A stretch of 64,000 nt of DNA from an uncultured Thermoanaerobaculia bacterium (GCA_964423595.1 CAYRFI010000001.1:21598-85597); one strand, 5' to 3'. Positions 391 to 14,864 are shown, counted from the first letter of the stretch. Numbers and translations are program-made. The notes: generated from the letters alone by a model not told the origin.

Positions 391-485
391 AACCGCGAAG
401 ACGCGAAGAGCGCAAAGACCGTCACGAAGGAAAACTCGAGATATCACCTTTGCGCTTTCTTTGCGTCTTTGCGTCTTTGCGTTTT
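391..485 (+). repeat. Long imperfect hairpin built from about 8-nt periodic repeats (GACGCNAA / TTTGCGTC arms)
   Basis: Left arm AACCGCGAAGACGCGAAGAGCGCAAAGACC (391-420) pairs with right arm CCTTTGCGCTTTCTTTGCGTCTTTGCG (447-473). There is an 8-bp core GCGCAAAG/CTTTGCGC plus a roughly 15-bp extension whose only non-Watson-Crick positions are G-U when folded as + strand RNA. Confidence 0.7.
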
Positions 486-545
486 CAACGAGGTACCCTT
501 AGCGGTAGCTGCCTTGTCAACGCGACAACGAAAAACGCAACAAAT

Positions 546-567
546 GGGCGGAGCCTTGACTCCGCCC
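546..567 (-). terminator. Terminator-like hairpin 3' of the gene remnant
   Basis: GGGCGGAG-N6-CTCCGCCC, followed on the - strand by a T-rich run (ATTTGTTGCGTTTTT). It parallels the hairpin downstream of the intact paralog at 5985-6003. Confidence 0.45.
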
Positions 568-590
568 ATTCTCTCCGGAGGGGGAGGGAC

Positions 591-680
591 TCTACGTCTC
601 GGGATGAGCTCGAAGGGCTTGAACGCCGAAATGATCGGCTGCACGGCATTGACCCGCAGCTCGACGGGCCAGTCGGACAC
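591..680 (-). pseudogene. Remnant of the 3' end of a Spy/CpxP-like gene (paralog of 6028-6477)
   Basis: CGGGATGAGCTCGAAGGGCTTGAACGCCGAAATGATCGGCTGCACG (600-645) closely matches 6037-6082. It encodes ...VQPIISAFKPFELIPRR versus ...VQPIIPAFKLFELIPRR. The stop codon position is mutated (TCT instead of TCA on the + strand) and no N-terminal part is present. Confidence 0.45.
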
Positions 681-780
681 CCTCGGACAAGAGCACCGGT
701 GTCCCGCGGGGCGCCCTGAGCGCGCGTTCCGACAGCCCTGCTATAGTGGTGGGAGGAAACAGATCTCAAAAGCGGAATTC

Positions 781-2697
781 ATGGCACGCCTCAAGACGCT
801 CAGGCGCCTCCTGGTGGTGGGGAACTCGCCGAACATCGCGCAACGCGCGCGGGAGCTGCTCGTGAAGGACGGGTACCGTCCCGCCGACTTGGAGGTGGTC
901 ACGACGCTGCGGCACGCGCGCGAGGCGCTCGCTGCGGCGGAGTGGGACGCGGTCCTCCTCGAGCTCGACCTCCCCGACAGCCGCGGCCTTGACACGCTGC
1001 GCGCCATCCTTGTGGCGGACGACGCTCTCCCGGTGGTCGCCCTGACCGATCACGCCGACCGCGAGCTTGCGGTGGCGGCGCTCGCCGAAGGGACGCAGGA
1101 CTTCGTGGTGACGACCGACCTCAGTGCCTCTTCCATGGGGCGGATTCTCGAGGATGCGGTCGCCCGCAAGACGGCCGAGAAAAGGCTGAAGCGGAGCGAG
1201 GCCCGATACCGGCTGCTGACGGAGCACGCCCTCGATCTGATCTGGATGATGAGTCCCGACCTCGAATTCACCTACGTCAGCCCCGCGATCACTGCCCTGA
1301 GCGGTTATACGCCGGAGGAGGTCGTCGGCACGCGGCTCGCCCAGTATGTTGCACCCCACGATTTCGAGGCGCTGCTCGCAATTGTGGCCGAAGAGCTCGC
1401 ACGATACCCCGAAGATCGTGGGGTGATCGCCTCCACAACCCTCATCGCCAAGGATGGGGAGCAGGTCCCGGTCGAGGTTCACGCCAAGTTCGTCCGGGAC
1501 GAGGACGGCGCGCCCGTCGCGCTGCACGGAATTGCGCGCAACATCAGCGAGCGGAATCGCGCTGAAACGGAACGTCGGCTGCTGCAGACGCAGCTCGCCC
1601 ACGCCCAGAGGATGGAGTCGATCGGTCGGCTGGCGAGCGGGGTCGCCCACGACTTCAACAACCTGCTGCAGGCCCTCACCGGGACCATCCAGGCGTTGCG
1701 GCGGCGCGGCGCCGACGCCTCTGACTTCGAATCGGACCTCGCCCACCTCGATCTGCTGGTGGAGCGAGGCTCGCGGCTCACCCGTCAACTGCTCATGTTC
1801 TCGCGCCGTGACGCCGAGCGCCCGATCGCTTTGGACCTCAACCGGTTGTTGAGTCACAACGCGAACATGCTTCGCCGCCTGCTGCCGGAGACAATCGAGA
1901 TTCAACACGAGCTGTGTGACCAGCCACTGGGCATCATGATCGATCCGGGGCGCATCGAGCAGGTGGTCGTGAACCTGGCGGTCAACGCCGCGGACGCCAT
2001 GCCGGTCCACGGCCGTCTCACCTTCCGCACCGGTGCCGATCACGGCTCGGCCCTGCTCGAAGTGGAGGACACGGGGACCGGCATCCCGGACGACCTCCAC
2101 GACAAGGTGTTTGATCCGTTCTTCACCACCAAGGAAGCCGGTACAGGCACCGGGCTCGGGCTGTCGGTGGTGCGCGGCATCGTCACCGAGGCAGGCGGCA
2201 CGATCGACCTCGGCACCACGCCGGCCGGCGGCACCATGTTCACGGTCAGGCTGCCACTGCTCGACGCCAAGGGACAGCTCACCCCGGTCCCCGGAACCGG
2301 CGGCATCGTGCGCGGCAGAGGCGAGCGCGTGCTGGTGGTGGACGACGACGAGAACGTCCGTACGGGGATCGAGCAGATGCTGAAGCTGCTCGGCTACCAC
2401 GTCGTCGCCGCCGACGGCCGGCAGGGCGCCCTCGCCGCGGTGGCCGAGGGTTCCTTCGGCCTGCTGCTCACCGACATGGTGCTCGCCGACGGCAGCGGGA
2501 TCGAGATTGCCACCGAGCTCCAGTCACACCAGCCCGGCCTGCCAGTGGTTCTGATGTCCGGCTACAGCCCCGAGATCGCGGACAGCGGCTCCCTTCTGGA
2601 ACGCAGCTTTTTGCAAAAGCCTTTCACCCTCGAGCTCTTGGCGCAGGCGGTACGAGCGGCGCTGGATGAGGGAGCAGCCGGGGACGAGGGTTGTTGA
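781..2697 (+). CDS. Hybrid sensor histidine kinase (REC-PAS-HisKA-HATPase-REC)
   Basis: Start chosen at [14 protein letters not shown] (REC domain, ...[13 protein letters not shown]...). Also present: a PAS region, the H-box [16 protein letters not shown], the ATPase motifs DTGTGIP and GTGLGLS, and a C-terminal REC ([10 protein letters not shown]...[13 protein letters not shown]). The longer ORF from 469 runs through the repeat region. Confidence 0.85.
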
Positions 2698-2720
2698 ACT
2701 GTTCGTCTGGGGGGAGTCTT

Positions 2721-5708
2721 ATGTCCGACAAGGAAACCACTGGGCCATCACCGCGGTTCGCGCCGGCGGGCGCCGTGATCGGCGTCCTCATCGCGATGGT
2801 AGTGGTAATCGTCGGTGCCGGGTCGTGGTTCTACGTTTCCCAGCGGCATTCGATCCAGCTCAAGGTCGAAAACGACCTGACTGCCATCGCCGAGCTGAAG
2901 CTGGGCCAGATCCAGGAGTGGAGGGCCGAACGGCTCGACGACGCGGAGCTGCTGGGCACCGACCCGATGTTCGTTCGAGCGGCCGTGAGTTTTCTCAGTT
3001 CAGCCAACAGCGGCGACCGCGAGGCGCTCCTGGGCAGGTTCCGCGCGGTGGCCGCGGCGCGGAAATACGAGGAGATCGCGCTGTTTGCCGCCGACGATCC
3101 GACCACCAGCACCCGGGGTCTCGTCCTCCACCCAAGCCTTTCCCTCGCCGATAACCTGCACGAGCTCCACCCCGACGCGGTTACCGCCGTTGCCGTCGCC
3201 CTGGGCGAGGGGCGCCCGGCCTTCTCCGATCTGCACCGAGGACCGTCGGGGCTCCCGCCTCACCTCGATATCGTCGCGCCGCTCGTCGACCCCGGGGGGA
3301 GCGGAAAGCCGCTCGGTGCGGTCGTCCTTCGCAGCGATGCTGCCGATTACCTCTACCCTCTCATCCAATCCTGGCCGGTCTCGAGTCGTACCGCCGAAAC
3401 CCTGCTCGTGCGCCGCGACGGCGATCAGGTCCTCTTCTTGAACGATATCCGTCACCGGAAGAAAGCCGCGCTCGAGCTCCGCCTCCCCGCGGACCAATCC
3501 GACCTACCGGCGGCAATGGCGATCGGCGGCGCCGAGGGGTTCGTCCACGGGTGCGACTACCGCGGCATCGAGGTGCTTGCCGTCGCGCGGGTCGTTCCGG
3601 AGACGAGCTGGCACATGATTACGAAGGTCGACCGGGAGGAGGCCCTCGCTGACTGGGAGAGGCGCGCCCCCCTCATTCTCGCGCTGCTGGCCGGGTTGGT
3701 GATCACCGCCGTTTCGACGACTCTATTGCTCTGGCAGCGCAACGCCAAGTCCTACTTCAAGACCCTGTACGAGACCGAGGCGGCGCACCGCCTCACCGAG
3801 GCCCGATACACTGCCACCCTGCTGAGCCTCGGCGACGGCGTGATCGCCGCCGACCCCGAGGGCCGGGTCGAACTGATGAACCCGGTTGCCGAGGAGCTGA
3901 CCGGCTGGCCCCAGGCCGAGGCCCGGGGCCGGACGATCGACGAGGTCTTTCGGATCGTAAGGGAGACAGACAGGGCGCCGGCCGAAAGCCCGGTTGAGAA
4001 GATCCTCCGCGAGGGCCGCATCGGCGGGCTCGCGAACCACACCCTGCTGGTCGCGCGAGACGGCTCCGAACGCCCGATCGCCAACACCGGCGCACCGATT
4101 CGCGACCCAGAGAACCAGGTCTTCGGCGCGGTCATCGTGTTCCGCGATCTGACCGAGGAGCGCAACGCGATCGCCGAGCTGCGCGACGGCGAGCGGCGCT
4201 ACCGGCTGCTCGCCGACAACACCCTGGATGTGATCTGGCAGATGGACCTCGAGGCCCGCTTCACCTATGTCAATCCCGCGATTCAACAGCTGTTCGGTTA
4301 TGCGCCCGAGGAGTTCATCGGGACCTCGCTCGCCGACCACTGCGACCCAGAGCACCTCGAGGAGCTCCTGAAAGTCATCGCTCACCAGCTCGAAGCGCTT
4401 GGTGATCACGATGGTGTTGTCGTCGAGACCGTCATGCTCCATCGTGACGGCCACGAAATCCCCGTCGAGGTGCACGGCAAAGTCCTGACCGACGAGTCCG
4501 GCGCACCGGTCGCGTTACAGGGCACGACGCGCGACCTCGGCGAACGCAAGCGGTTCGAGGATCAACTGCTGAAGTCGCAGAAGCTCGAGGCCGTGGGCCG
4601 GCTGGCGGGCGGGGTCGCCCACGACTTCAACAACATGCTTCAGGCCATCGTCGGCCACACCGAGATCGCCATTGAAAAGGGCGGCGGCGATGCCAGCCTC
4701 CTCGCCACCCTGCAGGAGATCCTTGAGGCCGCCCGTCGTTCCGCGGACCTCACCCGCCGGCTCCTCGGGTTCGCCCGCCGCCAGCCCACCCAGCCCGCGG
4801 TGCTCGACCTCAATGACGCCGTCGCTCGTATGCTGACGATGCTGCGTCCGATCATCGGCGAGGACATCGACTTGCTGTGGAAGCCGGGCGACGGGCTGTG
4901 GCCGGTGTTCCTCGACCCGTCACAGCTGGACCAGATACTGACAAATCTGGCGGCCAACGCCCGCGACGCCATCGCCGGTGTCGGCAAGGTCGTCATCGAA
5001 TCGGCCAACGCCAGCTTCGAAGCCGAATACTGCGCCGGTCATGCCGATGTGAAACCCGGTGAGTACGTGATGCTGGCGGTGAGCGACAACGGCTGCGGCA
5101 TGGACCGCGAGACCCTCGATCACGTCTTCGAACCTTTCTACACCACCAAGGAAAAGGGGGCGGGGACCGGTCTCGGGCTCGCCACGGTGTACGGCATCGT
5201 GCGTCAGAACGCAGGCTTCGTCAACGTCTACAGTGAGCCCGACGGAGGCACCACGTTCAAGATCTACCTCCCCAGGTGCCGGAAGGATCAGACCGAGGCG
5301 CCGTTTTCCGGCCGAACCCAGGCGTCCTACCCGCGCGGTGACGAGACTGTGCTGGTCGTCGAGGACGAACCGTCGATCCTGAGCATGTGCCAGCAGATGT
5401 TTGAACGGCTCGGCTACTCGGTGCTCACCGCGGGGACCCCCGGCGACGCGTTACGCACCGTGGAGGAGTACCGGGGCCCCATCCACCTCCTCCTCACCGA
5501 CGTCGTGATGCCGGAGATGACCGGCCTCGAGCTCGCGCACACCTTGCAGGAATCCAACACCGCCCTGAAGTGCCTTTACATGTCGGGTTACACCGGTAGT
5601 GCCGTCGCGCAACGGGATATCCTGGACCAGGGCCTGAAATTCATCCAGAAGCCGTTCAGCCTCAACGACCTCGCCGACAGAGTCCGCGAGGTGCTCGACG
5701 AATCCTAG
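2721..5708 (+). CDS. Hybrid sensor histidine kinase with periplasmic Cache-like domain, PAS repeats and C-terminal REC
   Basis: ATG 2721 is preceded by GGGGAG. Two TM helices flank a roughly 280-aa extracytoplasmic region (..DYRGIEVLAVARVVPETSWHMITKVD..). Two or three PAS domains, the H-box [29 protein letters not shown], and a REC (VLVVEDEPSI..LLLTDVVMPEMTG). Stop TAG at 5706-5708. Confidence 0.85.
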   Translation: MSDKETTGPSPRFAPAGAVIGVLIAMVVVIVGAGSWFYVSQRHSIQLKVENDLTAIAELKLGQIQEWRAERLDDAELLGTDPMFVRAAVSFLSSANSGDREALLGRFRAVAAARKYEEIALFAADDPTTSTRGLVLHPSLSLADNLHELHPDAVTAVAVALGEGRPAFSDLHRGPSGLPPHLDIVAPLVDPGGSGKPLGAVVLRSDAADYLYPLIQSWPVSSRTAETLLVRRDGDQVLFLNDIRHRKKAALELRLPADQSDLPAAMAIGGAEGFVHGCDYRGIEVLAVARVVPETSWHMITKVDREEALADWERRAPLILALLAGLVITAVSTTLLLWQRNAKSYFKTLYETEAAHRLTEARYTATLLSLGDGVIAADPEGRVELMNPVAEELTGWPQAEARGRTIDEVFRIVRETDRAPAESPVEKILREGRIGGLANHTLLVARDGSERPIANTGAPIRDPENQVFGAVIVFRDLTEERNAIAELRDGERRYRLLADNTLDVIWQMDLEARFTYVNPAIQQLFGYAPEEFIGTSLADHCDPEHLEELLKVIAHQLEALGDHDGVVVETVMLHRDGHEIPVEVHGKVLTDESGAPVALQGTTRDLGERKRFEDQLLKSQKLEAVGRLAGGVAHDFNNMLQAIVGHTEIAIEKGGGDASLLATLQEILEAARRSADLTRRLLGFARRQPTQPAVLDLNDAVARMLTMLRPIIGEDIDLLWKPGDGLWPVFLDPSQLDQILTNLAANARDAIAGVGKVVIESANASFEAEYCAGHADVKPGEYVMLAVSDNGCGMDRETLDHVFEPFYTTKEKGAGTGLGLATVYGIVRQNAGFVNVYSEPDGGTTFKIYLPRCRKDQTEAPFSGRTQASYPRGDETVLVVEDEPSILSMCQQMFERLGYSVLTAGTPGDALRTVEEYRGPIHLLLTDVVMPEMTGLELAHTLQESNTALKCLYMSGYTGSAVAQRDILDQGLKFIQKPFSLNDLADRVREVLDES

Positions 5709-6027: not shown

Positions 6028-6477
6028 TCAGCGCCGCGGGATGAGCTCGAAGAGCTTGAAGGCCGGGATGATCGGCTGTACGTCGTCGGCGCGGGCGACA
6101 AAATGGAGCTTTCGCGCCTGTGCCTCGTCGAGCAACGCCACAAAGTCCTCGTGGTAGATGAGGTGGACCTCGACGAGCTGCTCCGTGAGGTCACGGCGCT
6201 CGATGAATAGCGCACCCACTTCGGCCGGGTCCGGCTCTTCCACCTCGAACAGCGCGTCGATCTCCTCCTGGACAGCAGCAATCGCCTCCTTGAGAGGTTG
6301 CTCCGCGTCGCGGTGGATCTGATAGATCACATCCCACGCAGCGGCCTGTTCGGGGGTCAGACTGAGGAAGGCGACCACGGCGTTGTGGGACGCCTCGACG
6401 ATCGGCGGCGGCTCCTCCTGGGCGAATACCGGTGTCACCAATACAAGTGCAATCAGCGCAGCCAAGATCTTCTTCAT
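6028..6477 (-). CDS. Periplasmic Spy/CpxP-family (LTxxQ) protein
   Basis: Start at MKKILAALIALVLVTPVFAQE (signal peptide), preceded by GGAGAGA. LTxxQ-like motifs LSLTPEQAAAW and LDEAQARKL; helical acidic protein of 149 aa. Confidence 0.6.
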   Translation of the reverse strand: MKKILAALIALVLVTPVFAQEEPPPIVEASHNAVVAFLSLTPEQAAAWDVIYQIHRDAEQPLKEAIAAVQEEIDALFEVEEPDPAEVGALFIERRDLTEQLVEVHLIYHEDFVALLDEAQARKLHFVARADDVQPIIPAFKLFELIPRR

Positions 6478-6560
6478 CTGTCTCTCCTTTCCTTCAAATT
6501 CAGCTTTGTTTGAGTGATCACTCCGCGTCATGGCGTTCTGACGGAGGAATCCGCAGCAGG

Positions 6561-6641: not shown

Positions 6642-7316
6642 TTGGGGCCGCGTCAAACCACAACCCGGGAACGCCTGATCACCACCGCCGCCGAGCTCTT
6701 TCGGCGCCAGGGTTATGCCCACACCGGGGTCAATCAGATCATTCAGGAGGCAAACGCGACCAGCGGCAGCTTTTACCACTTCTTTCCGGCCAAGGAGGAT
6801 CTGCTGCTGGCGGTGGTCGATCACATCGCCGAAGTCTTCGAAACCGGGATCTTCGATCCCGCCGCGGATCGATCCGATGACCCCATCGAGGAGATCTTCA
6901 TGATCCTCGATCTCTACCGTCGGCAGCTCGACGACGGTGGCTTCACCTTCGGTTCACCGATGGCAAGCCTGTCGGCCGAGGTTTCGGAAAATCACCCTGA
7001 GGTCAGGGCCAGGCTGGCCGAGATCTTGAGCTCATGGACCGGCCGCATCGAGGAGTTGCTGCGGAATGCGGGGGAGCGCCTGCCGAGGAGCATCGATCGC
7101 AGCGCCCTCGCCCAGCTCATCGTCTGCACGATGGAGGGCGCAGTCCTCGGCACCCGTTTGCGGCGCAGCCTGGCGCCCTTCGATGCGTCCGTGGGTCAGC
7201 TCCGAACCTACCTCGATCTTCTCGACAGCCGGAAGGAGCACCACGCGACTGTCCCGGCCGCGAGAAGGGTGCCTTCGGTCTCGCGGCCACAGCCTGCGGA
7301 TTGGAGAAGCTGGTGA
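6642..7316 (+). CDS. TetR/AcrR-family transcriptional regulator
   Basis: N-terminal HTH TRERLITTAAELFRRQGYAHTGVNQIIQEANATSGSFYHFFPAKEDLL. TTG start. Stop TGA at 7314-7316 overlaps the GTG of the next gene (GTGA). Confidence 0.85.
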   Translation: MGPRQTTTRERLITTAAELFRRQGYAHTGVNQIIQEANATSGSFYHFFPAKEDLLLAVVDHIAEVFETGIFDPAADRSDDPIEEIFMILDLYRRQLDDGGFTFGSPMASLSAEVSENHPEVRARLAEILSSWTGRIEELLRNAGERLPRSIDRSALAQLIVCTMEGAVLGTRLRRSLAPFDASVGQLRTYLDLLDSRKEHHATVPAARRVPSVSRPQPADWRSW

Positions 7317-7900
7317 ACAGCATTGACAACCATGCCGGCAACCCAGCTATCACGGAGGAAGAGATCCGACAGTTGGTGAGCGTGGTGGTCGACGAGGCGA
7401 TGGCCGTCAAAAGGACAGACGCGCCGAAAAACCCCGAGACCATCGCCATCGGCGCTGACCACGCCGGATACGAGCTCAAGCAGGCGATCACCGAACACCT
7501 GCGTCAGCAGGGCCTCGCCGTTCACGATTGCGGGTGTGTCAACACCGAGGCGGTCGATTACCCTGACTTCGCGCATGCGGTCGCAAACCTGGTTGGCACC
7601 GGCGTCTGCCGGTGGGGCATCATCGTTGACGGCGCCGGTATCGGCTCGTGTATCGTCGCCAACAAGGTGCCCGGGGTGCGCGCCGCCCTCTGCTACGACC
7701 TCTCGTCGGCCCGTAACAGCCGTGAGCACAACCACGCCAACGTCCTCACCCTCGGTGCCGGATTGATCGGTATGGGCCTCGCGCGTCAGATCGTCGACGA
7801 GTGGCTGGCCACGCCGTGGGGCCCGGACCGTCACGCGCGCCGGGTGGCCAAGATCACCGACATCGAGCACCGCTACCTGCGGCCGGGAGCCGAAGCATGA
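7313..7900 (+). CDS. rpiB: RpiB/LacA/LacB-family sugar-phosphate isomerase with N-terminal extension (putative encapsulation peptide)
   Basis: Core IAIGADHAGYELKQAITEHL...GIIVDGAGIGSCIVANKVPGVRAAL...REHNHANVLTLGA. About 45 extra N-terminal residues include the amphipathic EEEIRQLVSVVVDEAMAV. The GTG 7313 start is inferred from the GTGA overlap; an internal ATG start (at MAVKRTD) would lack the extension. Confidence 0.8.
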   Translation: MNSIDNHAGNPAITEEEIRQLVSVVVDEAMAVKRTDAPKNPETIAIGADHAGYELKQAITEHLRQQGLAVHDCGCVNTEAVDYPDFAHAVANLVGTGVCRWGIIVDGAGIGSCIVANKVPGVRAALCYDLSSARNSREHNHANVLTLGAGLIGMGLARQIVDEWLATPWGPDRHARRVAKITDIEHRYLRPGAEA

Positions 7901-8727
7901 TCGATCGCAACGAGCTCATCGAGGCCGTCACCCGCCAGGTGCTGGCGACTCTCGCCGGCCAACCCGCCGACCAGGGTCTGGAAAACGCACCCCAGGTGGT
8001 GGCCAACGGCGCCGCCCGCCTCGGCTACTGCGGCGCCGCCGCCGCCGTGCCGAAGGACCTGGCGCAGTACATCGACCACACCCTGCTGCGGCCCGACGCC
8101 TCCTCTGCCGATATCGATCGTCTCTGCGACGAGGCGGCGGAGTACGGGTTTGCCGCGGTCTGCATCAACCCCTCATGGGTGGCGCGAGCCAAGAAGCGCT
8201 TGCGCGGTTCCAACATCACGGTGGCCTCGGTGGTTGGCTTCCCTCTCGGCGCCAACACCCCCGAGATCAAGGCGATGGAGGCGCGCCGAGCGCTGCGGGA
8301 CGGCGCGCGTGAGATCGACATGGTGATCAACATCGGCGCCCTCAAAGGCGGCGAGCATGACCTCGTGCGGCGTGACATCGCCGGCGTGTCGGACGCCTGC
8401 CGCGAGGTCGGGGCGCTCAATAAGGTGATCATCGAGGCCGCGTATTTGACCGACGAGGAGAAGGTGATCGCGTGCCGGCTCGCGGTCGCCGGGCGCGCCC
8501 ACTACGTCAAGACCTCGACCGGCTTCGGGCCGGGCGGGGCAACTGTATTTGACGTTGCTCTGATGCGCGAGGTCGTCGGCGCCAAGGTTGGCGTCAAAGC
8601 GGCCGGCGGCATCCACACCGCGGCCGAGGTGCGCGAGATGATCACCGCCGGGGCGACGCGCATCGGGGCGTCGGCCGGCGTCCGCATCGTCTCGGGTGAG
8701 GAAGGAGAGTCCGGTGGACAATATTGA
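7897..8727 (+). CDS. deoC: Deoxyribose-phosphate aldolase with N-terminal extension (putative encapsulation peptide)
   Basis: Core ..[38 protein letters not shown]...VKTSTGF...VKAAGGI. About 50 extra N-terminal residues start [25 protein letters not shown] overlap with the rpiB stop. Confidence 0.85.
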
Positions 8728-9340
8728 CCTTCGCTCTTACGTTTTCCTGGATTCGCTGCAGCCCCAGTACGCGGCGTTCCTCGGCACCGTCGCACAGGGC
8801 TTCCTGCCGCTGGCCGGCGACGCTTCGCTGTGGGTGGAGATCTCGCCGGGGATCGAGATCAACCGGCTCACCGACGTCGCCCTCAAGGCGACCCACGTGC
8901 GGCCCGGGATGCAGATCGTCGAACGCTTCTATGGCCTGCTCGAGGTGCACTCCGAGTCACAGGCCGACACCCGCGCAGCCGGCGCCGCCATCCTGGCGGA
9001 GATCGGGCTCGAGGAGAAGGACCGCCGCAAACCGAAAATCCTCTCGAGCCAGGTCATCCGCCACCTCGACGACCACCAGGTGCAGCTCATCAACCGCATG
9101 CGGCACGGCCACATGATCATCCCCAAGCAGACCCTGTACGTGCTCGAGGTCGAACCGGCGGCCTACGCGGCGCTCGCGGCCAATGAGGCCGAGAACGCCG
9201 CCGAGATCAACATTCTCGAGGTGCGGGCCTTCGGCTCGATGGGCCGGGTCTACCTCGGTGGAGAGGAGCGGGATATCGATGTCGGGTGGCGCGCGGCGGT
9301 CGCCGCCATCGAGGGCGTGGAAGGAAGAGAAGAAAAGTGA
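8714..9340 (+). CDS. Tandem-domain BMC shell protein (BMC-T type)
   Basis: Two BMC-like halves: ..[31 protein letters not shown].. and ..[39 protein letters not shown]... GTG 8714 is preceded by GAAGGAGAG. The alternative GTG 8696 overlaps deoC more. Confidence 0.65.
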
Positions 9341-9343
9341 TCA

Positions 9344-9378
9344 CGATTTCGGATTTCGGATTTCGGATTTCGGATTTG
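9344..9378 (+). repeat. Heptanucleotide tandem repeat (GGATTTC, about 4.7 copies) in the leader of the BMC-H gene
   Basis: CGATTTC GGATTTC GGATTTC GGATTTC GGATTTG, directly after the stop at 9338-9340. Including the SD (GAAAGGAG), the 9341-9406 spacer has six GGA motifs. Confidence 0.9.
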
Positions 9379-9406
9379 GTTCTCGGATGCGAGAAAGGAG
9401 TTTTCG

Positions 9407-9724
9407 ATGGCTGAAGCGTTGGGAATGATCGAGTGCCGGGGATTTGCGGCTGTCGTGGAGGCCGCCGACGCCATGGTCAAGGCGGCCAAGGTCGAGCTGG
9501 TGTCGTATGAGAAGACTGGCGGCGGCTACGTCACCGCTATCGTGCGCGGCGACGTCGCCGCGGTCAAGGCCGCGGTCGAGGCCGGTATCCGCGGCGCCGA
9601 GACCATCGGCGAAGTGGTGTCGACCCATGTCATTGCCCGCCCCCACACCAACATCGACCTCGTCCTGCCCCTCGGCCGCGCCGAAGAGGCGGCCGGCGAA
9701 ACCAAGGCCAAGGGCAAGCGCTGA
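9407..9724 (+). CDS. BMC-H hexameric shell protein (PduA/EutM-like)
   Basis: [60 protein letters not shown] is the canonical single BMC domain. SD GAAAGGAG lies upstream. Confidence 0.92.
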
Positions 9725-10038
9725 TGCTGCTCGGGCGAGTGGCCGGCACCCTGGTCGCGAGCCGCAAGGACGAGGGCCTCCAGGGCCAGAAGTTCCTGGT
9801 TGTGCGCGAGCTCGGGGTAGACGGCAAGGAGACCGGTGGTCACGTGGTGGCGGCGGACTCGGTCGGCGCGGGTGTCGGCGACGTGGTGCTGTGGGCCTCT
9901 GGTTCGTCGGCGCGGCAGACCGAGTACACCCGCGACCGCCCGTGTGACGCGGTCATCATGGCCATCGTCGATAGCTGGGAGGTCGGCGGCGAGGAGATCT
10001 ACCGCAAGACCCCGGCCGGCGGCGAGTGGGCGAGCTGA
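9724..10038 (+). CDS. BMC-P pentameric vertex protein (EutN/CcmL family), paralog 1
   Basis: [30 protein letters not shown]...[25 protein letters not shown] overlaps the preceding TGA. Confidence 0.88.
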
Positions 10039-10053
10039 CGATCGAAACGGGCG

Positions 10054-10086
10054 CGGTCGAGGACGAGGAGCGATGAACCTCGACCG
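10054..10086 (+). promoter_or_regulatory. Intra-operon stem-loop with a 5-codon mini-ORF, upstream of the aldehyde dehydrogenase
   Basis: Perfect 9-bp stem CGGTCGAGG / CCTCGACCG with a 15-nt loop ACGAGGAGCGATGAA. ATGAACCTCGACCGGTGA (10073-10090) encodes MNLDR. A second SD, TGGAGG, lies 8 nt before TTG 10106. Confidence 0.5.
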
Positions 10087-10105
10087 GTGACTGGAGGCGC
10101 AGCAG

Positions 10106-11548
10106 TTGCAAGCAGCATTTGACCAGCAGGAGATCGCGGCCGTCGTCGAACGCGTGCGGCTGAAGCTTCGCGGCCATACGGAAGTGCCGCCCACCGCCAT
10201 GGTCGACCGACAGGATGTCGCCGGCGATGGCATCTATCCGGATGTCGACTCCGCGGTGGCGGCGGCACGGACGGCGTTCGAAGCGTACCGATCGATGGGA
10301 CTGAAAAAAAGGCACCGCATCATCGATGCGGTGCGTAGTGCCATGCGCGACAGGGCTGGAGAGCTGGCGAACATGGCGCGTGAGGAGACCGGCATCGGCC
10401 GCGCCGAGGACAAGCTGCTCAAAAACCTCCTTGTCACCAACAAAACGCCCGGTCCTGAGGACCTCGAGCCCCGGGTGTGGTCGGGCGATCAGGGTCTGAC
10501 CGTTACCGAGTACGCGCCTTTCGGCGTCATCGGCGCCATCACCCCGACCACCAACCCGACCGCGACGATCATCAACAACTCCATCGCCATCGTCTCGGCA
10601 GGCAACGCCGTGGTTTTCAACGCCCATCCCAACGCCAAAAGGGTCTCGGTCCAGAACGTCCGCTGGCTGAACCAGGCCATCGTCTCGGCCGGTGGCCCGC
10701 CCGACCTCGTCACCGCGACCCCGGAGCCGACAATCGAGAGCGCCCAGCGGCTCATGAACCACCCACAGGTCCGGATTTTGATGATCACCGGCGGACCGGG
10801 CGTGGTGAAGGAGGCGCAAAAAACCCGCAAGAGGTCGATCTGCGCCGGTCCCGGCAATCCACCGGTGGTGGTCGACGTCAACGCTGACCTCGAGCTCGCA
10901 GGGCGAGAGATCGTGCGCGGCGCGTCATTCGATAACAACGTGATCTGCACCGACGAGAAGCTCGTCATTGTCGTGGACACCGCGGCCGACGAGCTGCTGC
11001 GGCAGATGCGGACCAACCACGCCTACCTGCTCAAGGCGTACGAGCTCAAAAAGCTCGAGCGGGTGATCTTCTCGGAGATCGGCGAGCCGGGCAAACCGGG
11101 CCGGATCAACTCACGCTGGATCGGCCAGAACGCCGGGACAATTCTCTCCGAGATCGGGATTCAGGCCGGGGACGATCTCCGCCTGGTGCTCGCCGACGTG
11201 CCGCCTGAGCACTCCCTGGTGTGGACCGAGCAGATGATGCCGGTGATGCCGGTGGTCCGGGTCCGCACCGTCGACGAGGCCATCGACCTGGCAATCCAGG
11301 CCGAGCACGGCTGCGGCCATACCGCCTCGATCTACTCCCGCGACGTCAACGCCATCACCAGCATGGCGCGTGACATCGATGTCTCGATCTTCGTCGCCAA
11401 CGCCGCCAATCTCGCCGGTCTCGGCGACGGTGGAGAGGGCTACACCTCTTTCTCCATCGCCAGCCCGACCGGCGAAGGGCTGACCCGACCACGCAGCTTC
11501 TCCCGTGATCGCCGGATGACCGTCGCCGGTGGTCTGAGGATCGTCTGA
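10106..11548 (+). CDS. CoA-acylating aldehyde dehydrogenase (PduP/EutE-like) with N-terminal encapsulation-peptide-like helix
   Basis: Catalytic-Cys region KRSICAGPGNPPVVVD; ALDH fold throughout (FGVIGAITPTTNP, NAHPNAK). The N-terminus (M)QAAFDQQEIAAVVERVRLKLRG is amphipathic. TTG start. Confidence 0.85.
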   Translation: MQAAFDQQEIAAVVERVRLKLRGHTEVPPTAMVDRQDVAGDGIYPDVDSAVAAARTAFEAYRSMGLKKRHRIIDAVRSAMRDRAGELANMAREETGIGRAEDKLLKNLLVTNKTPGPEDLEPRVWSGDQGLTVTEYAPFGVIGAITPTTNPTATIINNSIAIVSAGNAVVFNAHPNAKRVSVQNVRWLNQAIVSAGGPPDLVTATPEPTIESAQRLMNHPQVRILMITGGPGVVKEAQKTRKRSICAGPGNPPVVVDVNADLELAGREIVRGASFDNNVICTDEKLVIVVDTAADELLRQMRTNHAYLLKAYELKKLERVIFSEIGEPGKPGRINSRWIGQNAGTILSEIGIQAGDDLRLVLADVPPEHSLVWTEQMMPVMPVVRVRTVDEAIDLAIQAEHGCGHTASIYSRDVNAITSMARDIDVSIFVANAANLAGLGDGGEGYTSFSIASPTGEGLTRPRSFSRDRRMTVAGGLRIV

Positions 11549-12138
11549 TGCAGCCGGCTATTGCATTGCTCGAGTTCAACTCTATCGCCATCGGGATGCG
11601 GGCCGGCGACGCCATGGTCAAACGCGCCCCTGTCGAGGTCACCTATGCCGGCACCGTTCATCCGGGTAAATACCTGGTGCTGGTCGGCGGTGACGTCGCG
11701 TCGGTCGAGGAGAGTTACGTCGCCGGCCTCTCCGCCGGCGGCGACGCCGTGGTCGATCGGATCTTCCTGCCGTCCGCCCACCCGGATATCGCACGTTACC
11801 TGCGCGGAATGCGCGGTCGGGTCACCGGCGAAGCGATCGGGATCGTCGAGACCACAACCGTCGCCGCAACCATCGGCGCCGCCGACCGCGGCCTCAAGGG
11901 CGCCGACGTGGATCTGGTCGAACTCAAGCTCGCCGACCGGCTCGGCGGCAAGGCCTATTGCGTCTTTTCGGGCACCGTCGCCGACGTCGAGGCGGCGGTC
12001 GAGGTCGGCGTCGATCACCTTGACGACCCATCCATGTTGGTCGCCCAGGTCGTGATCCCCGACTTCCACGACGAGATGCTGGCCAACCTCGAGGCGGCGA
12101 CCGAGTTCTCCTCGCGCATCAGCGGCGGCAGGGGTTAG
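11548..12138 (+). CDS. Tandem-domain BMC shell protein (BMC-T, Haliangium T1-like)
   Basis: Domain 1 AIALLEFNSIAIGMRAGDAMVKRAPVEV..GKYLVLVGGDVASVEES; domain 2 IGIVETTTVAATIGAADRGLKGADVDLVELKLADRLGGKAYCVFSGTVADVEAAVE. ATG overlaps the preceding TGA. Confidence 0.85.
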   Translation: MQPAIALLEFNSIAIGMRAGDAMVKRAPVEVTYAGTVHPGKYLVLVGGDVASVEESYVAGLSAGGDAVVDRIFLPSAHPDIARYLRGMRGRVTGEAIGIVETTTVAATIGAADRGLKGADVDLVELKLADRLGGKAYCVFSGTVADVEAAVEVGVDHLDDPSMLVAQVVIPDFHDEMLANLEAATEFSSRISGGRG

Positions 12139-12297: not shown

Positions 12298-12573
12298 ATG
12301 GAACTCGGGAGGGTCACAGGGACAGTGGTCGCGACGACGATCTACGACGGTCTCGAAGGCGCCCGACTCTTGATCGTGCAGCCGCTCGACCGCAAGCTTC
12401 GACCGCGCGGACGGCCGGTTGTTGCCGCCGACGGGGTCGCGATGGCCGCGCCTGACGACCTGGTCACCTTTGTTTCGAGCCGCGAGGCCTCGCTGGCTCT
12501 GCCGCCGCCACCCGGTCCGGTCGACCACGCCATCGTCGGCATCGTTGATGCGGTCGAGGAGTGGTCACAGTGA
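12298..12573 (+). CDS. BMC-P pentameric vertex protein, paralog 2
   Basis: MELGRVTGTVVATTIYDGLEGARLLIVQPLD...AADGVAMAAPDDLVTFVSSREA. SD AGGAGCG lies upstream. The longer ORF from 12214 runs through the hairpin spacer. Confidence 0.8.
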   Translation: MELGRVTGTVVATTIYDGLEGARLLIVQPLDRKLRPRGRPVVAADGVAMAAPDDLVTFVSSREASLALPPPPGPVDHAIVGIVDAVEEWSQ

Positions 12574-12863
12574 AGATCGGACGCGTCGCCGGCACCGTGG
12601 TCTCGACCATCTGCTCGCCGGTCTTCGAAAACCGGAAACTGCTCTTTGTCGACCTGCTCGACCTCGATGGCAACGGGACCGGCGGGGATGTCATCGCGGT
12701 GGACGCCGTCGGCGCCGGCGCCGGCGAGACCGTGCTCGTGCTCGACGAGGGCAACGGCGCGCGTCAGGTGCTCGAAGCCCCCGACGCGCCGGTGCGGGCG
12801 GTGGTTGTTGGCGTCATCGACGAGATCGAGACCCTCAGAACCTCACCCGTGCGAAGACGCTGA
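12570..12863 (+). CDS. BMC-P pentameric vertex protein, paralog 3
   Basis: (V)KIGRVAGTVVSTICSPVFENRKLLFVDLLD...AVDAVGAGAGETVLVLDEGNGARQ. GTG 12570 overlaps the preceding TGA (GTGA). Confidence 0.8.
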   Translation: MKIGRVAGTVVSTICSPVFENRKLLFVDLLDLDGNGTGGDVIAVDAVGAGAGETVLVLDEGNGARQVLEAPDAPVRAVVVGVIDEIETLRTSPVRRR

Positions 12864-13406: not shown

Positions 13407-14864
13407 ATGCAACTCACCGACAGTACGTTGTTGAAAACCCGGGCCTTGGTTGGCGGCACGTGGATCGACGCCGACGACGGCGCGACCTTTGCCGTGACCA
13501 ACCCGGCGACTGGCGAGGTCGTTGCGGAGGTGGCGAAATGCGGCGGCGGCGAAACCCGCCGCGCCATCGAGGCGGCAGAGCGGGCCCAGATCGAGTGGCG
13601 GCAGAAGACGGCCGCAGAGCGCTCAAATCTCCTCAGGCGGTGGTTCGAGCTGATGATGGAGCACCAGGAGGACCTGGCGCGGGTCATGACCGCGGAGCAG
13701 GGCAAACCACTCTTCGAATCGCGAGGCGAGATCGCCTACGGCGCGAGCTACATTGAGTGGTTTGCCGAGGAGGCCAAACGGATCTATGGCGACGTCATAC
13801 CTCCGCCTGCCACCGACCGCCGAATCGTCGTTATCAAGCAGCCGGTCGGCGTCGTGGCGTGCATCACGCCGTGGAACTTCCCCAACGCCATGCTCGCGCG
13901 CAAGGTCGGCGCCGCGCTGGCCGCCGGCTGCACGGCGGTGTGCAAGCCCGCGACCGCAACGCCACTCTCTGCCCTGGCGATGGCCGAGCTCGCCGATCGC
14001 GCCGGCATCCCCCCGGGCGTGATCAACGTCGTCGCCGGACGCACCGGCGCCATCGGCGATGAGCTCACCTCCAACCCCACCGTCCGCAAGCTGACCTTTA
14101 CCGGCTCGACCGAGGTCGGCAAAAAGCTCGTTGAGCAATGCGCTGGGACCATGAAGCGGACCTCGATGGAGCTTGGCGGCAACGCACCCTTCATCGTCTT
14201 TGACGACGCCGATTTCGAAACGGCGGTCAAGGCCACCCTGGCCAGCAAGTACCGTAACGCCGGCCAGACCTGCGTCTGCGCCAACCGCGTCCTGGTCCAG
14301 GAAAGCGTCATAGAGGAGTACTCCGAGATGCTGGCCGAGGCGGTGGCCGAGTTCAAGCTCGGCAACGGCGCCGACGAGGGCGTGACCATGGGCCCGCTGA
14401 TCGACGATGCCGCGGCAGACAATGTCGTCGCCATGATCGAGGACGCAGCTGCGAAAGGAGCCAAGGTCATGCTTGGCGGCGGCCGCTCGAAGCTCGGTGG
14501 GAGCTTCGTCGAGCCGACCATTCTCTCAGGGGTCACCAGCGACATGCGGGTCTTCCGCGAGGAGATCTTCGGGCCGGTGTCGCCGCTGGTTTCGTTCAGC
14601 ACCGAGGAGGATGCGATCGCGATCGCCAACGACACCCAGTTCGTGCTCGCGGCCAACTTCTGCACGCGCGATATCGGCCGTATCTGGCGCGTCGCCGAAG
14701 GCCTCGAGTACGGCATCATCGGCATCAACGAGGGCGTCATTTCCAACGCCATGGCCCCCTTCGGCGGCATCAAGGAGTCCGGCAACGGCCGTGAGGGCTC
14801 CAAGTACGGCCTCGATGATTACCTCGAGATCAAGTACCTGTGCATCGGTGGTATCGACGGGTAG
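13407..14864 (+). CDS. gabD: NAD(P)+-dependent succinate-semialdehyde dehydrogenase (GabD-like, non-acylating ALDH)
   Basis: MQLTDSTLLKTRALVGGTWIDADDGATFAVTNPATGEVVAEV..., ITPWNFP, FTGSTEVGK, ELGGNAP, catalytic-Cys region GQTCVCANR. Start chosen at the ATG preceded by a G-rich stretch. Confidence 0.88.
   Translation: MQLTDSTLLKTRALVGGTWIDADDGATFAVTNPATGEVVAEVAKCGGGETRRAIEAAERAQIEWRQKTAAERSNLLRRWFELMMEHQEDLARVMTAEQGKPLFESRGEIAYGASYIEWFAEEAKRIYGDVIPPPATDRRIVVIKQPVGVVACITPWNFPNAMLARKVGAALAAGCTAVCKPATATPLSALAMAELADRAGIPPGVINVVAGRTGAIGDELTSNPTVRKLTFTGSTEVGKKLVEQCAGTMKRTSMELGGNAPFIVFDDADFETAVKATLASKYRNAGQTCVCANRVLVQESVIEEYSEMLAEAVAEFKLGNGADEGVTMGPLIDDAAADNVVAMIEDAAAKGAKVMLGGGRSKLGGSFVEPTILSGVTSDMRVFREEIFGPVSPLVSFSTEEDAIAIANDTQFVLAANFCTRDIGRIWRVAEGLEYGIIGINEGVISNAMAPFGGIKESGNGREGSKYGLDDYLEIKYLCIGGIDG

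Follow-up and report, generated by a model that had tools for sequence, protein, structure and literature searches.

Conserved N-terminal helices, probable encapsulation peptides, on three enzymes of an SPU3-type microcompartment operon from an uncultured Thermoanaerobaculales bacterium

The stretch of DNA analysed here, referred to as the window, comprises 64,000 nucleotides (nt) from an uncultured Thermoanaerobaculia bacterium (GCA_964423595.1 CAYRFI010000001.1:21598-85597). On its plus strand, a compact operon encodes bacterial microcompartment (BMC) shell proteins together with three enzymes, namely RpiB (RPI), the aldolase DERA (DeoC) and the acylating aldehyde dehydrogenase AldDh. As the initial annotation had claimed for these enzymes, all three were found to possess N-terminal anatomy of the encapsulation peptide (EP) type, with a conserved helix set amid variable segments within a shell-gene operon. 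These helices are probably the EPs of an operon of the sugar phosphate utilizing (SPU) type, subtype SPU3, by which the enzymes would be gathered through bundling and tethered to the shell, with DERA and AldDh residing in the lumen and RpiB serving as a packaging partner.

Alignment to proteins of solved structure was used to define the extent of each extension. In RpiB the Pfam domain begins at residue 44, and the alignment with solved RpiBs sets in at residue 43/44, opposite residue 2-3 of the latter, giving an extension of ~42 amino acids, close to the early start of ~45 first proposed. For DERA, the alignment with solved enzymes sets in at residue 53, opposite their residue 3, giving an extension of ~52 amino acids against a proposed ~50, while the truncated BMC AldDh 4c3s aligns from residue 42 and leaves an extension of ~41 amino acids. 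The alignment against orthologs from outside microcompartments that had been proposed as a check showed the extension to be lacking in housekeeping homologs. Conservation was then described using the ratio of non-synonymous to synonymous differences (pN/pS) from five codon-aligned loci and, for RpiB, identity among 116 homologs that are 75-99% identical to the window protein. The three genes and the segments of their extensions are as follows.

7313..7900, plus strand: RpiB/RPI gene; 195 amino acids, GTG start, catalytic Cys replaced by Asp106
7313..7348, plus strand: RpiB variable N-terminal tail, residues 1-12; identity 0.25, pN/pS 0.96
7349..7411, plus strand: RpiB probable encapsulation-peptide helix, residues 13-33, ITEEEIRQLVSVVVDEAMAVK; identity 0.88 and pN/pS 0.15 for residues 13-32, AlphaFold2 helix 15-33
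7412..7438, plus strand: RpiB variable linker, residues 34-42; identity 0.47 and pN/pS 0.76 for residues 33-42, disordered in AlphaFold2
7897..8727, plus strand: DERA (DeoC) gene; 276 amino acids, ATG start, D141, K205 and K234 present
7900..7959, plus strand: DERA N-terminal helix, residues 2-21; pN/pS 0.07, AlphaFold2 helix 4-19
7960..7977, plus strand: DERA variable linker 1, residues 22-27; pN/pS 0.49, site of a Cys-rich insert in half of the relatives
7978..8028, plus strand: DERA second conserved element, residues 28-44, not a linker; pN/pS 0.09
8029..8052, plus strand: DERA linker 2, residues 45-52; pN/pS 0.33, predicted local distance difference test (pLDDT) score <50
10106..11548, plus strand: AldDh gene; 480 amino acids, TTG start, catalytic Cys in NNVICTDEK
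10109..10171, plus strand: AldDh probable encapsulation-peptide helix region, residues 2-22, QAAFDQQEIAAVVERVRLKLR; pN/pS 0.15
10172..10228, plus strand: AldDh variable linker, residues 23-41, including the unconserved Met32; pN/pS 0.61

All three extensions are translated, and their helices are as constrained as the catalytic cores. This conclusion follows from helix pN/pS values (0.15 for RpiB, 0.07 for DERA and 0.15 for AldDh) that resemble those of the cores (0.10-0.13), from nucleotide differences in the helices that are concentrated at third codon positions and from the lack of conservation of internal Met codons, with RpiB Met30 replaced by Ile, Val or Leu in 30 of the 116 homologs and AldDh Met32 missing in all four of the related contigs described below (L081-L084). 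Tails and linkers gave values of 0.33-0.96, as opposed to 0.07-0.15 for the helices. Identity followed the same division in RpiB, at 88% for residues 13-32 (ITEEEIRQLVSVVVDEAMAV) and 90% for the core, with 25% for residues 1-12 and 47% for the linker at residues 33-42.

A poorly conserved linker between helix and core, which is a criterion for EPs, was thus found, with that of DERA being broken by a conserved element. The layout of a helix followed by a low-complexity linker, as initially described, holds for all three enzymes insofar as a conserved helix lies amid variable segments. It does not hold for the whole extension of DERA, which is bipartite; labelling its remainder a Gly/Ala/Pro linker is incorrect because residues 28-44 are conserved and under selection. 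The VV..GA.R[LIV] core of this second element is conserved in distant DERAs, and phmmer alignments to the DERAs of most fusion proteins begin within or just before it. AlphaFold2 modelled a short helix at residues 31-36 with low confidence. A bipartite extension agrees with the published account of all SPU DERAs, in which another structural element accompanies the helix (Dwyer et al. 2024, PMC11585597).

AlphaFold2 predicted helices at residues 15-33 of RpiB and 4-19 of DERA with disordered flanks, from shallow alignments and with pLDDT scores of 44-63. Family profiles were built from 80 DERA loci drawn from one-genome-per-species contigs, with all proteins of each locus scanned. Family-mean hydrophobicity displayed an hh..hh..hh pattern with spacings of i, i+3/4 and i+7/8, for which the hydrophobic moment at 100 degrees exceeded that of column shuffles (p 0.02-0.04) and peaked at 90-95 degrees. 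Each helix also showed a motif of its own. For RpiB this was [ST]-[DE]-x-[DE]-[IVL]-[RHQK]-x-[IL]-[IV]-x-x-[IV]-[VL] among the separate RpiBs of shell-gene loci, with the part [DE]-[IVL]-[RHQ]-x-[IL]-[IV]-x-x-[IV]-[VL] conserved across phyla (n=19); for DERA it was [DE]-x-L-[IV]-E-x-[IV]-T-[RHD]-[EQ]-[IV]-[LV] across phyla (n=28), and for AldDh it was [DEQ]-[IV]-x-x-[IV]-[IA]-x-[RKQ]-[IVL] among related AldDhs, likewise across phyla (n=25).

A single motif, E-[IL]-x-x-[LV]-V, had been proposed to be shared by the three helices as a possible sign of one common shell docking site. It was found in RpiB (EIRQLV, residue 17) and AldDh (EIAAVV, residue 9), with no match in the window DERA (ELIEAV), which carries Ala at a motif position occupied by Val in 111 of 120 close homologs; this protein thus carries a V-to-A change. 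The strict motif, which was defined post hoc, occurs four times in the ~20,700 amino acids of window open reading frames (ORFs), and since it is this rare, its recurrence in the helices of RpiB and AldDh (two of the four occurrences) is not due to chance. The best reading of the motif is a hydrophobic stripe generic to encapsulation peptides, and by analogy with known peptides, EP-EP bundling would explain it equally as well as a single shell docking site.

The presence of the DERA extension was found to be associated with shell genes. Of 19 DERAs without an extension, 16 had no shell genes nearby (Bacillus, Thermococcus and others), with the remaining three being RpiB-DERA fusions that possess an internal helix. 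Among DERAs of shell-gene loci, the extension was present in 38 of 41 (Fisher p = 5e-4).

Five points weigh against reading the helices as encapsulation peptides. The confidence of AlphaFold2 for the RpiB and DERA helices is low to moderate. Hydrophobic moments computed from single sequences (0.50-0.65, and lower for AldDh) did not exceed those of shuffles of the own extension, so that the i, i+3/4 pattern reported in the initial annotation stands for the family means and not for the individual sequences. In DERA, the extension exceeds a classic EP in both length and degree of structure. Extensions were also identified on 23 DERAs without shell genes within 8 kb, often beside an Asp-type RpiB (L010, L012-L015, L018-L020, L025-L027, L036, L043, L047, L048, L050, L063, L067-L069, L071, L073, L080), so that an adjacent shell operon does not strictly accompany the extension; these loci may be satellites whose microcompartment genes lie elsewhere, or short-contig artefacts. 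Lastly, an experimental demonstration that cargo is targeted to a shell exists for no SPU encapsulation peptide, the sole experiment on an SPU extension being a deletion that made the SPU6 DERA soluble and cured its aggregation (PMC11585597).

Extensions of this kind on SPU enzymes have already been published. SPU3 loci were described as encoding AldDh, pfam01791 and pfam02502, with pfam02502 first, and a shell set that comprises BMC-H once, BMC-P as a triplet, a CcmP-like BMC-Tdp and, in the absence of PduS, a BMC-Ts; they occur in Acidobacteria among other phyla, with EPs at the N-termini of AldDh and pfam01791 (Sutter et al. 2021, PMC8217296 supplementary data 2). Dwyer, Sutter and Kerfeld (2024, PMC11585597) subsequently reported that an extension with an amphipathic helix is present at the N-terminus of every SPU DERA, that a typical N-terminal EP, often missed by annotation, is found on the SPU RPI and that the EP of AldDh is N-terminal in all SPU subtypes except SPU6. 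The window shares the features that define SPU, with a pfam01791 DERA encoded beside shell genes, a pfam00171 acylating AldDh and three EutN_CcmL proteins. It also shares those of SPU3, with AldDh, DERA and RPI as its only enzymes and RPI placed before DERA, and with a single BMC-H, three BMC-P proteins, a CcmP-like BMC-Tdp and a BMC-Ts but no PduS. Further likenesses are probable EPs on AldDh and DERA (as described in 2021) and on RPI (as described in 2024), the Cys-to-Asp replacement in RPI and an origin in Acidobacteria. The operon thus matches an SPU3-type microcompartment, as assigned by gene content and not by the hidden Markov model colour scheme of those authors, and represents a routine example of the type.

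Comparison with the SPU6 locus of Chloroflexi bacterium GWB2_54_36 (Dwyer et al. 2024) revealed both similarities and differences. In both, the RPI and DERA genes adjoin with RPI first, DERA carries a helix plus a further element, and RPI carries the Asp and an EP, a probable one in the window. The DERA extension is ~70 amino acids in SPU6 as opposed to ~52 in the window, the BMC-Tdp proteins belong to different clades, and the SPU6 AldDh falls in another clade with a C-terminal EP, with SPU6-like loci giving weak AldDh matches only. The regulator is of the TetR family in the window as opposed to GntR in the characterized SPU6 locus. The RpiB linker of ~10 amino acids is also shorter than the ~75 given for the SPU RPI in the 2024 paper, where the example is from Chloroflexi.

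The peptides of PduP, PduD and EutC (Fan et al. 2010, 2011, as cited in PMC11585597) are, according to that citing paper, N-terminal amphipathic helices of ~18 amino acids joined by a poorly conserved linker to the core, an arrangement like that of the window proteins. Both sets of helices display a hydrophobic stripe with spacings of i, i+3/4 and i+7, which for the window enzymes is that of the family-mean profiles. An acidic-to-basic i, i+4 pair, E7/R11, stabilizes bundles of the PduP peptide (2025 study, PMC12339742), and the same spacing was identified in RpiB (E15/R19) and DERA (E9/R13). They differ in that the Pdu and Eut peptides are borne by other cargo enzymes, share no sequence homology with the window helices past the pattern and have been shown by experiment to target cargo, whereas this has been shown for no SPU peptide.

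Taken from anatomy, genomic context and analogy, the most likely course of events comprises targeting, bundling and a luminal pathway. Each enzyme would begin with a tail that is short and variable, continue with a hydrophobically striped, conserved helix of ~16-20 residues and pass through a variable linker into the core. Helix-helix bundling, by analogy with PduP, PduD and EutC, would gather RpiB, DERA and AldDh into a common core, which the helices would tether to the shell's inner face during assembly. For Pdu peptides, there is published support for trimeric EP-EP bundling, by which cargo is condensed (PMC12339742), and for docking into grooves between shell tiles (PMC11157265). Inside the shell, DERA would cleave deoxyribose 5-phosphate into glyceraldehyde 3-phosphate plus acetaldehyde, and AldDh would convert the acetaldehyde to acetyl-CoA. 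RpiB, without its catalytic Cys, is more likely to act as a packaging partner that binds DERA than to perform a second metabolic step.

Residue assignments of the enzymes are consistent with this chemistry. DERA has a DeoC Pfam match and aligns with solved DERAs at E=3e-75, including the catalytic residues in EIDMV (D141), VKTSTG (K205) and GVKAAGG (K234), which we take to correspond to E. coli D102, K167 and K201. Its gene adjoins that of BMC-Tdp, followed by BMC-H and BMC-P. The top PDB matches of AldDh are BMC-type CoA-acylating enzymes (5jfl, 4c3s), and its catalytic Cys motif is present. The luminal route from deoxyribose 5-phosphate via acetaldehyde to acetyl-CoA is thereby likely, judged from these residues.

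The isomerase step appears otherwise. The window RpiB has the LacAB_rpiB fold (Pfam 8e-52, full profile), retains the His equivalent to E. coli His99 (SREHNHAN aligning with SREHNDAN) and has a core under strong purifying selection (pN/pS 0.12). The catalytic base (E. coli Cys66) is not retained, as GIIVDGAGIG aligns with GIVICGTGLG of the Clostridium thermocellum RpiB and places Asp106 at this position, and Asp was likewise found in all 40 SPU-type RpiBs with a readable motif. Dwyer et al. (2024, PMC11585597) described the Cys-to-Asp replacement in all SPU RPIs, and for the SPU6 RPI little or no ribose 5-phosphate isomerase activity, a stable DERA-RPI complex and a proposed role in packaging. 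The earlier claim that at least two sugar-phosphate steps would occur in the lumen is weakened by these observations, and a second such step performed by RpiB is doubtful since Asp replaces the catalytic Cys in its sequence.

The best-surviving alternative takes this further, with RpiB as a packaging adaptor that bears the EP and brings DERA in through a stable RpiB-DERA complex, so that DERA would catalyse the sole sugar-phosphate reaction in the lumen. The replaced Cys, the published inactivity and complex of the SPU6 enzyme and the existence of natural RpiB-DERA fusions all favour such an arrangement. However, the RpiB of Mycobacterium tuberculosis functions with a Glu base, according to a citing paper, so Asp need not abolish activity; the His and other active-site motifs are kept in a constrained core, and the enzyme assayed was from SPU6 and not SPU3. 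We regard this alternative as a serious one that falls a little short of an even prospect, and it refines rather than excludes the explanation of the helices as encapsulation peptides.

An additional module of ~50 amino acids (ITEDDhRxL..G..L.h...A.hTPLA.D...E..I.L) was observed in some SPU-type RpiBs, where it precedes the core and follows the EP or the N-terminus (L013, L020, L023, L026, L036, L041, L047, L060, L067). It gave no match in a Pfam search, and the window RpiB does not carry it.

A second alternative concerns DERA, the extension of which may mainly be an interaction or regulatory domain (for RpiB binding, oligomerization or, in relatives, metal), with the helix as one part of it and not a classic EP. 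The second element is constrained like the core and is kept in many fusions whose DERA part has no N-terminal helix of its own, half of the relatives have at least four Cys between the helix and residues 28-44, and the DERA extensions of SPU1 were stated to 'do not resemble EPs' (Sutter et al. 2021, PMC8217296). Against this, the N-terminal helix shares its hydrophobic periodicity and E-x-x-x-R spacing with known EPs, a variable linker (pN/pS 0.49) separates it from residues 28-44, and relief of aggregation upon deletion of the extension is typical of EPs. A mainly domain-like role for the DERA extension is unlikely on this balance, though it deserves consideration. Two further ideas are, taken together, equally tentative. 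As residues 28-44 are constrained like the core and retained in many fusions, this element rather than the N-terminal helix could be the family-defining adaptor for RpiB or the shell; separately, given exactly three EP-bearing enzymes and the published trimeric preference of EP bundles, a heterotrimeric RpiB-DERA-AldDh bundle with a 1:1:1 core stoichiometry is conceivable.

The Cys-rich segment was identified in 30 of 60 extension-bearing DERAs, as at least four Cys within ~38 amino acids between the N-terminal helix and VV..GA.R. Examples are CEDCHGSCAAHS, CADCHGSCAAHC and CSACGLC (such as L003 at ~8001-8160, L005 and L011; proteins P0249 and P0258). The segment is unmentioned in the main text of Dwyer et al. 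2024 (PMC11585597). It may be a metal or iron-sulfur site. The window equivalent is at 7960-7995, where DERA has no Cys, unlike half of its relatives, and comparison of the sequences suggests that the Thermoanaerobaculales lineage may have lost the segment. Fusion proteins are frequent among the high-scoring relatives of DERA (P0252, P0258 and many DERAs of ~460-500 amino acids), some being RpiB-DERA fusions (SPU3-type) and others having an N-terminal Flavoprotein domain (PF02441) that precedes the Cys-rich segment and DERA.

The start codons were also examined, as internal initiation (for example at MAVKRTD in RpiB) had been named initially as an outcome under which the extensions would go untranslated. 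The RpiB GTG at 7313 has GGAG 6 nt upstream and overlaps the TetR stop codon (GTGA), while the DERA ATG at 7897 has GGGAG 7 nt upstream and overlaps the RpiB stop codon (ATGA). The AldDh TTG at 10106 has GGAGG 8 nt upstream and is the first start codon past the in-frame TGA at 10088. No usable Shine-Dalgarno sequence was found at the internal ATG codons 7400 (where GAGG is merely 2 nt away) or 10199. Translation from RpiB Met30, AldDh Met32 and DERA Val34/35, with the extensions as untranslated leaders, is suggested by little besides the in-frame ATG codons at 7400 and 10199 and the rarity of a TTG start, and is very improbable in view of the core-like helix pN/pS (0.07-0.15) with mostly third-position substitutions, the unconserved internal Met codons, the good Shine-Dalgarno sequences and translational coupling of the upstream starts and the conservation of the helix peptides across phyla. 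The internal-start hypothesis was rejected on the grounds of pN/pS, Met conservation and Shine-Dalgarno sequences. A tiny ORF (ATGAACCTCGACCGGTGA, 5 codons) at 10075-10092 ends 13 nt 5' of the AldDh TTG.

With the helices taken as probable encapsulation peptides, codon-level selection confirms, here for an uncultured lineage of Acidobacteriota, both the translation and the constraint of the published SPU peptides. The system is not of a new kind, and the practical value lies in the correct annotation of start codons for BMC cargo. The family-wide motifs of the RpiB, DERA and AldDh helices could guide reporter-fusion experiments, and the clean, minimal cassette of ten genes could be used for the engineering of shells and cargo.

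This cassette is a compact operon on the plus strand in the order TetR, RpiB, DERA, CcmP-like BMC-Tdp, BMC-H, BMC-P, AldDh, BMC-Ts, BMC-P and BMC-P. Besides the three enzymes it comprises the following genes.

6642..7316, plus strand: TetR-family regulator; Pfam TetR_N and TetR_C_13, stop codon overlapping the RpiB start (GTGA)
8714..9340, plus strand: CcmP-like BMC-Tdp; 208 amino acids from GTG 8714, PDB 4ht5 CcmP at E=6e-87
9407..9724, plus strand: BMC-H shell hexamer protein; Pfam BMC, 4e-30
9724..10038, plus strand: BMC-P pentamer protein 1; Pfam EutN_CcmL
11548..12138, plus strand: BMC-Ts with tandem BMC domains; Pfam BMC in two stretches
12298..12573, plus strand: BMC-P pentamer protein 2; ATG 12298, 91 amino acids as in its homologs, Pfam EutN_CcmL
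12561..12863, plus strand: BMC-P pentamer protein 3; Pfam EutN_CcmL

The closest database relatives are metagenome bins of Thermoanaerobaculales/Acidobacteriota, and the source organism is a Thermoanaerobaculales (Acidobacteriota) bacterium. Four related contigs (L081-L084) were found to carry the identical ten genes in identical order between unrelated flanks, and the cassette is therefore the unit. Within these contigs the TetR gene keeps its equivalent position, and the RpiB homologs are also 195 amino acids long and called with the equivalent start. Neither PduS nor a phosphotransacylase (PTAC) was identified in the cassette, in contigs L081-L084 or among the window ORFs scanned, this last scan being non-exhaustive. 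The BMC-Tdp gave no Pfam BMC match despite its match to CcmP at E=6e-87. Its likely start is GTG 8714, preceded by AGGAG and giving the 208 amino acids of its homologs, and not the first GTG at 8696; it overlaps the 3' end of the DERA gene by 14 nt.

Directly downstream of the cassette, a second aldehyde dehydrogenase (13407-14864; full-length Aldedh match, 2e-168) was identified without an EP-like extension. It is probably unrelated to the microcompartment, as it is missing at that position in L081-L084. Upstream of the cassette lie two hybrid histidine kinases with PAS, HisKA and response-regulator domains (469-5708) and, on the minus strand, a divergent Metal_resist/LTXXQ periplasmic protein (6028-6531), which also adjoins the TetR gene in L081, L083 and L084.

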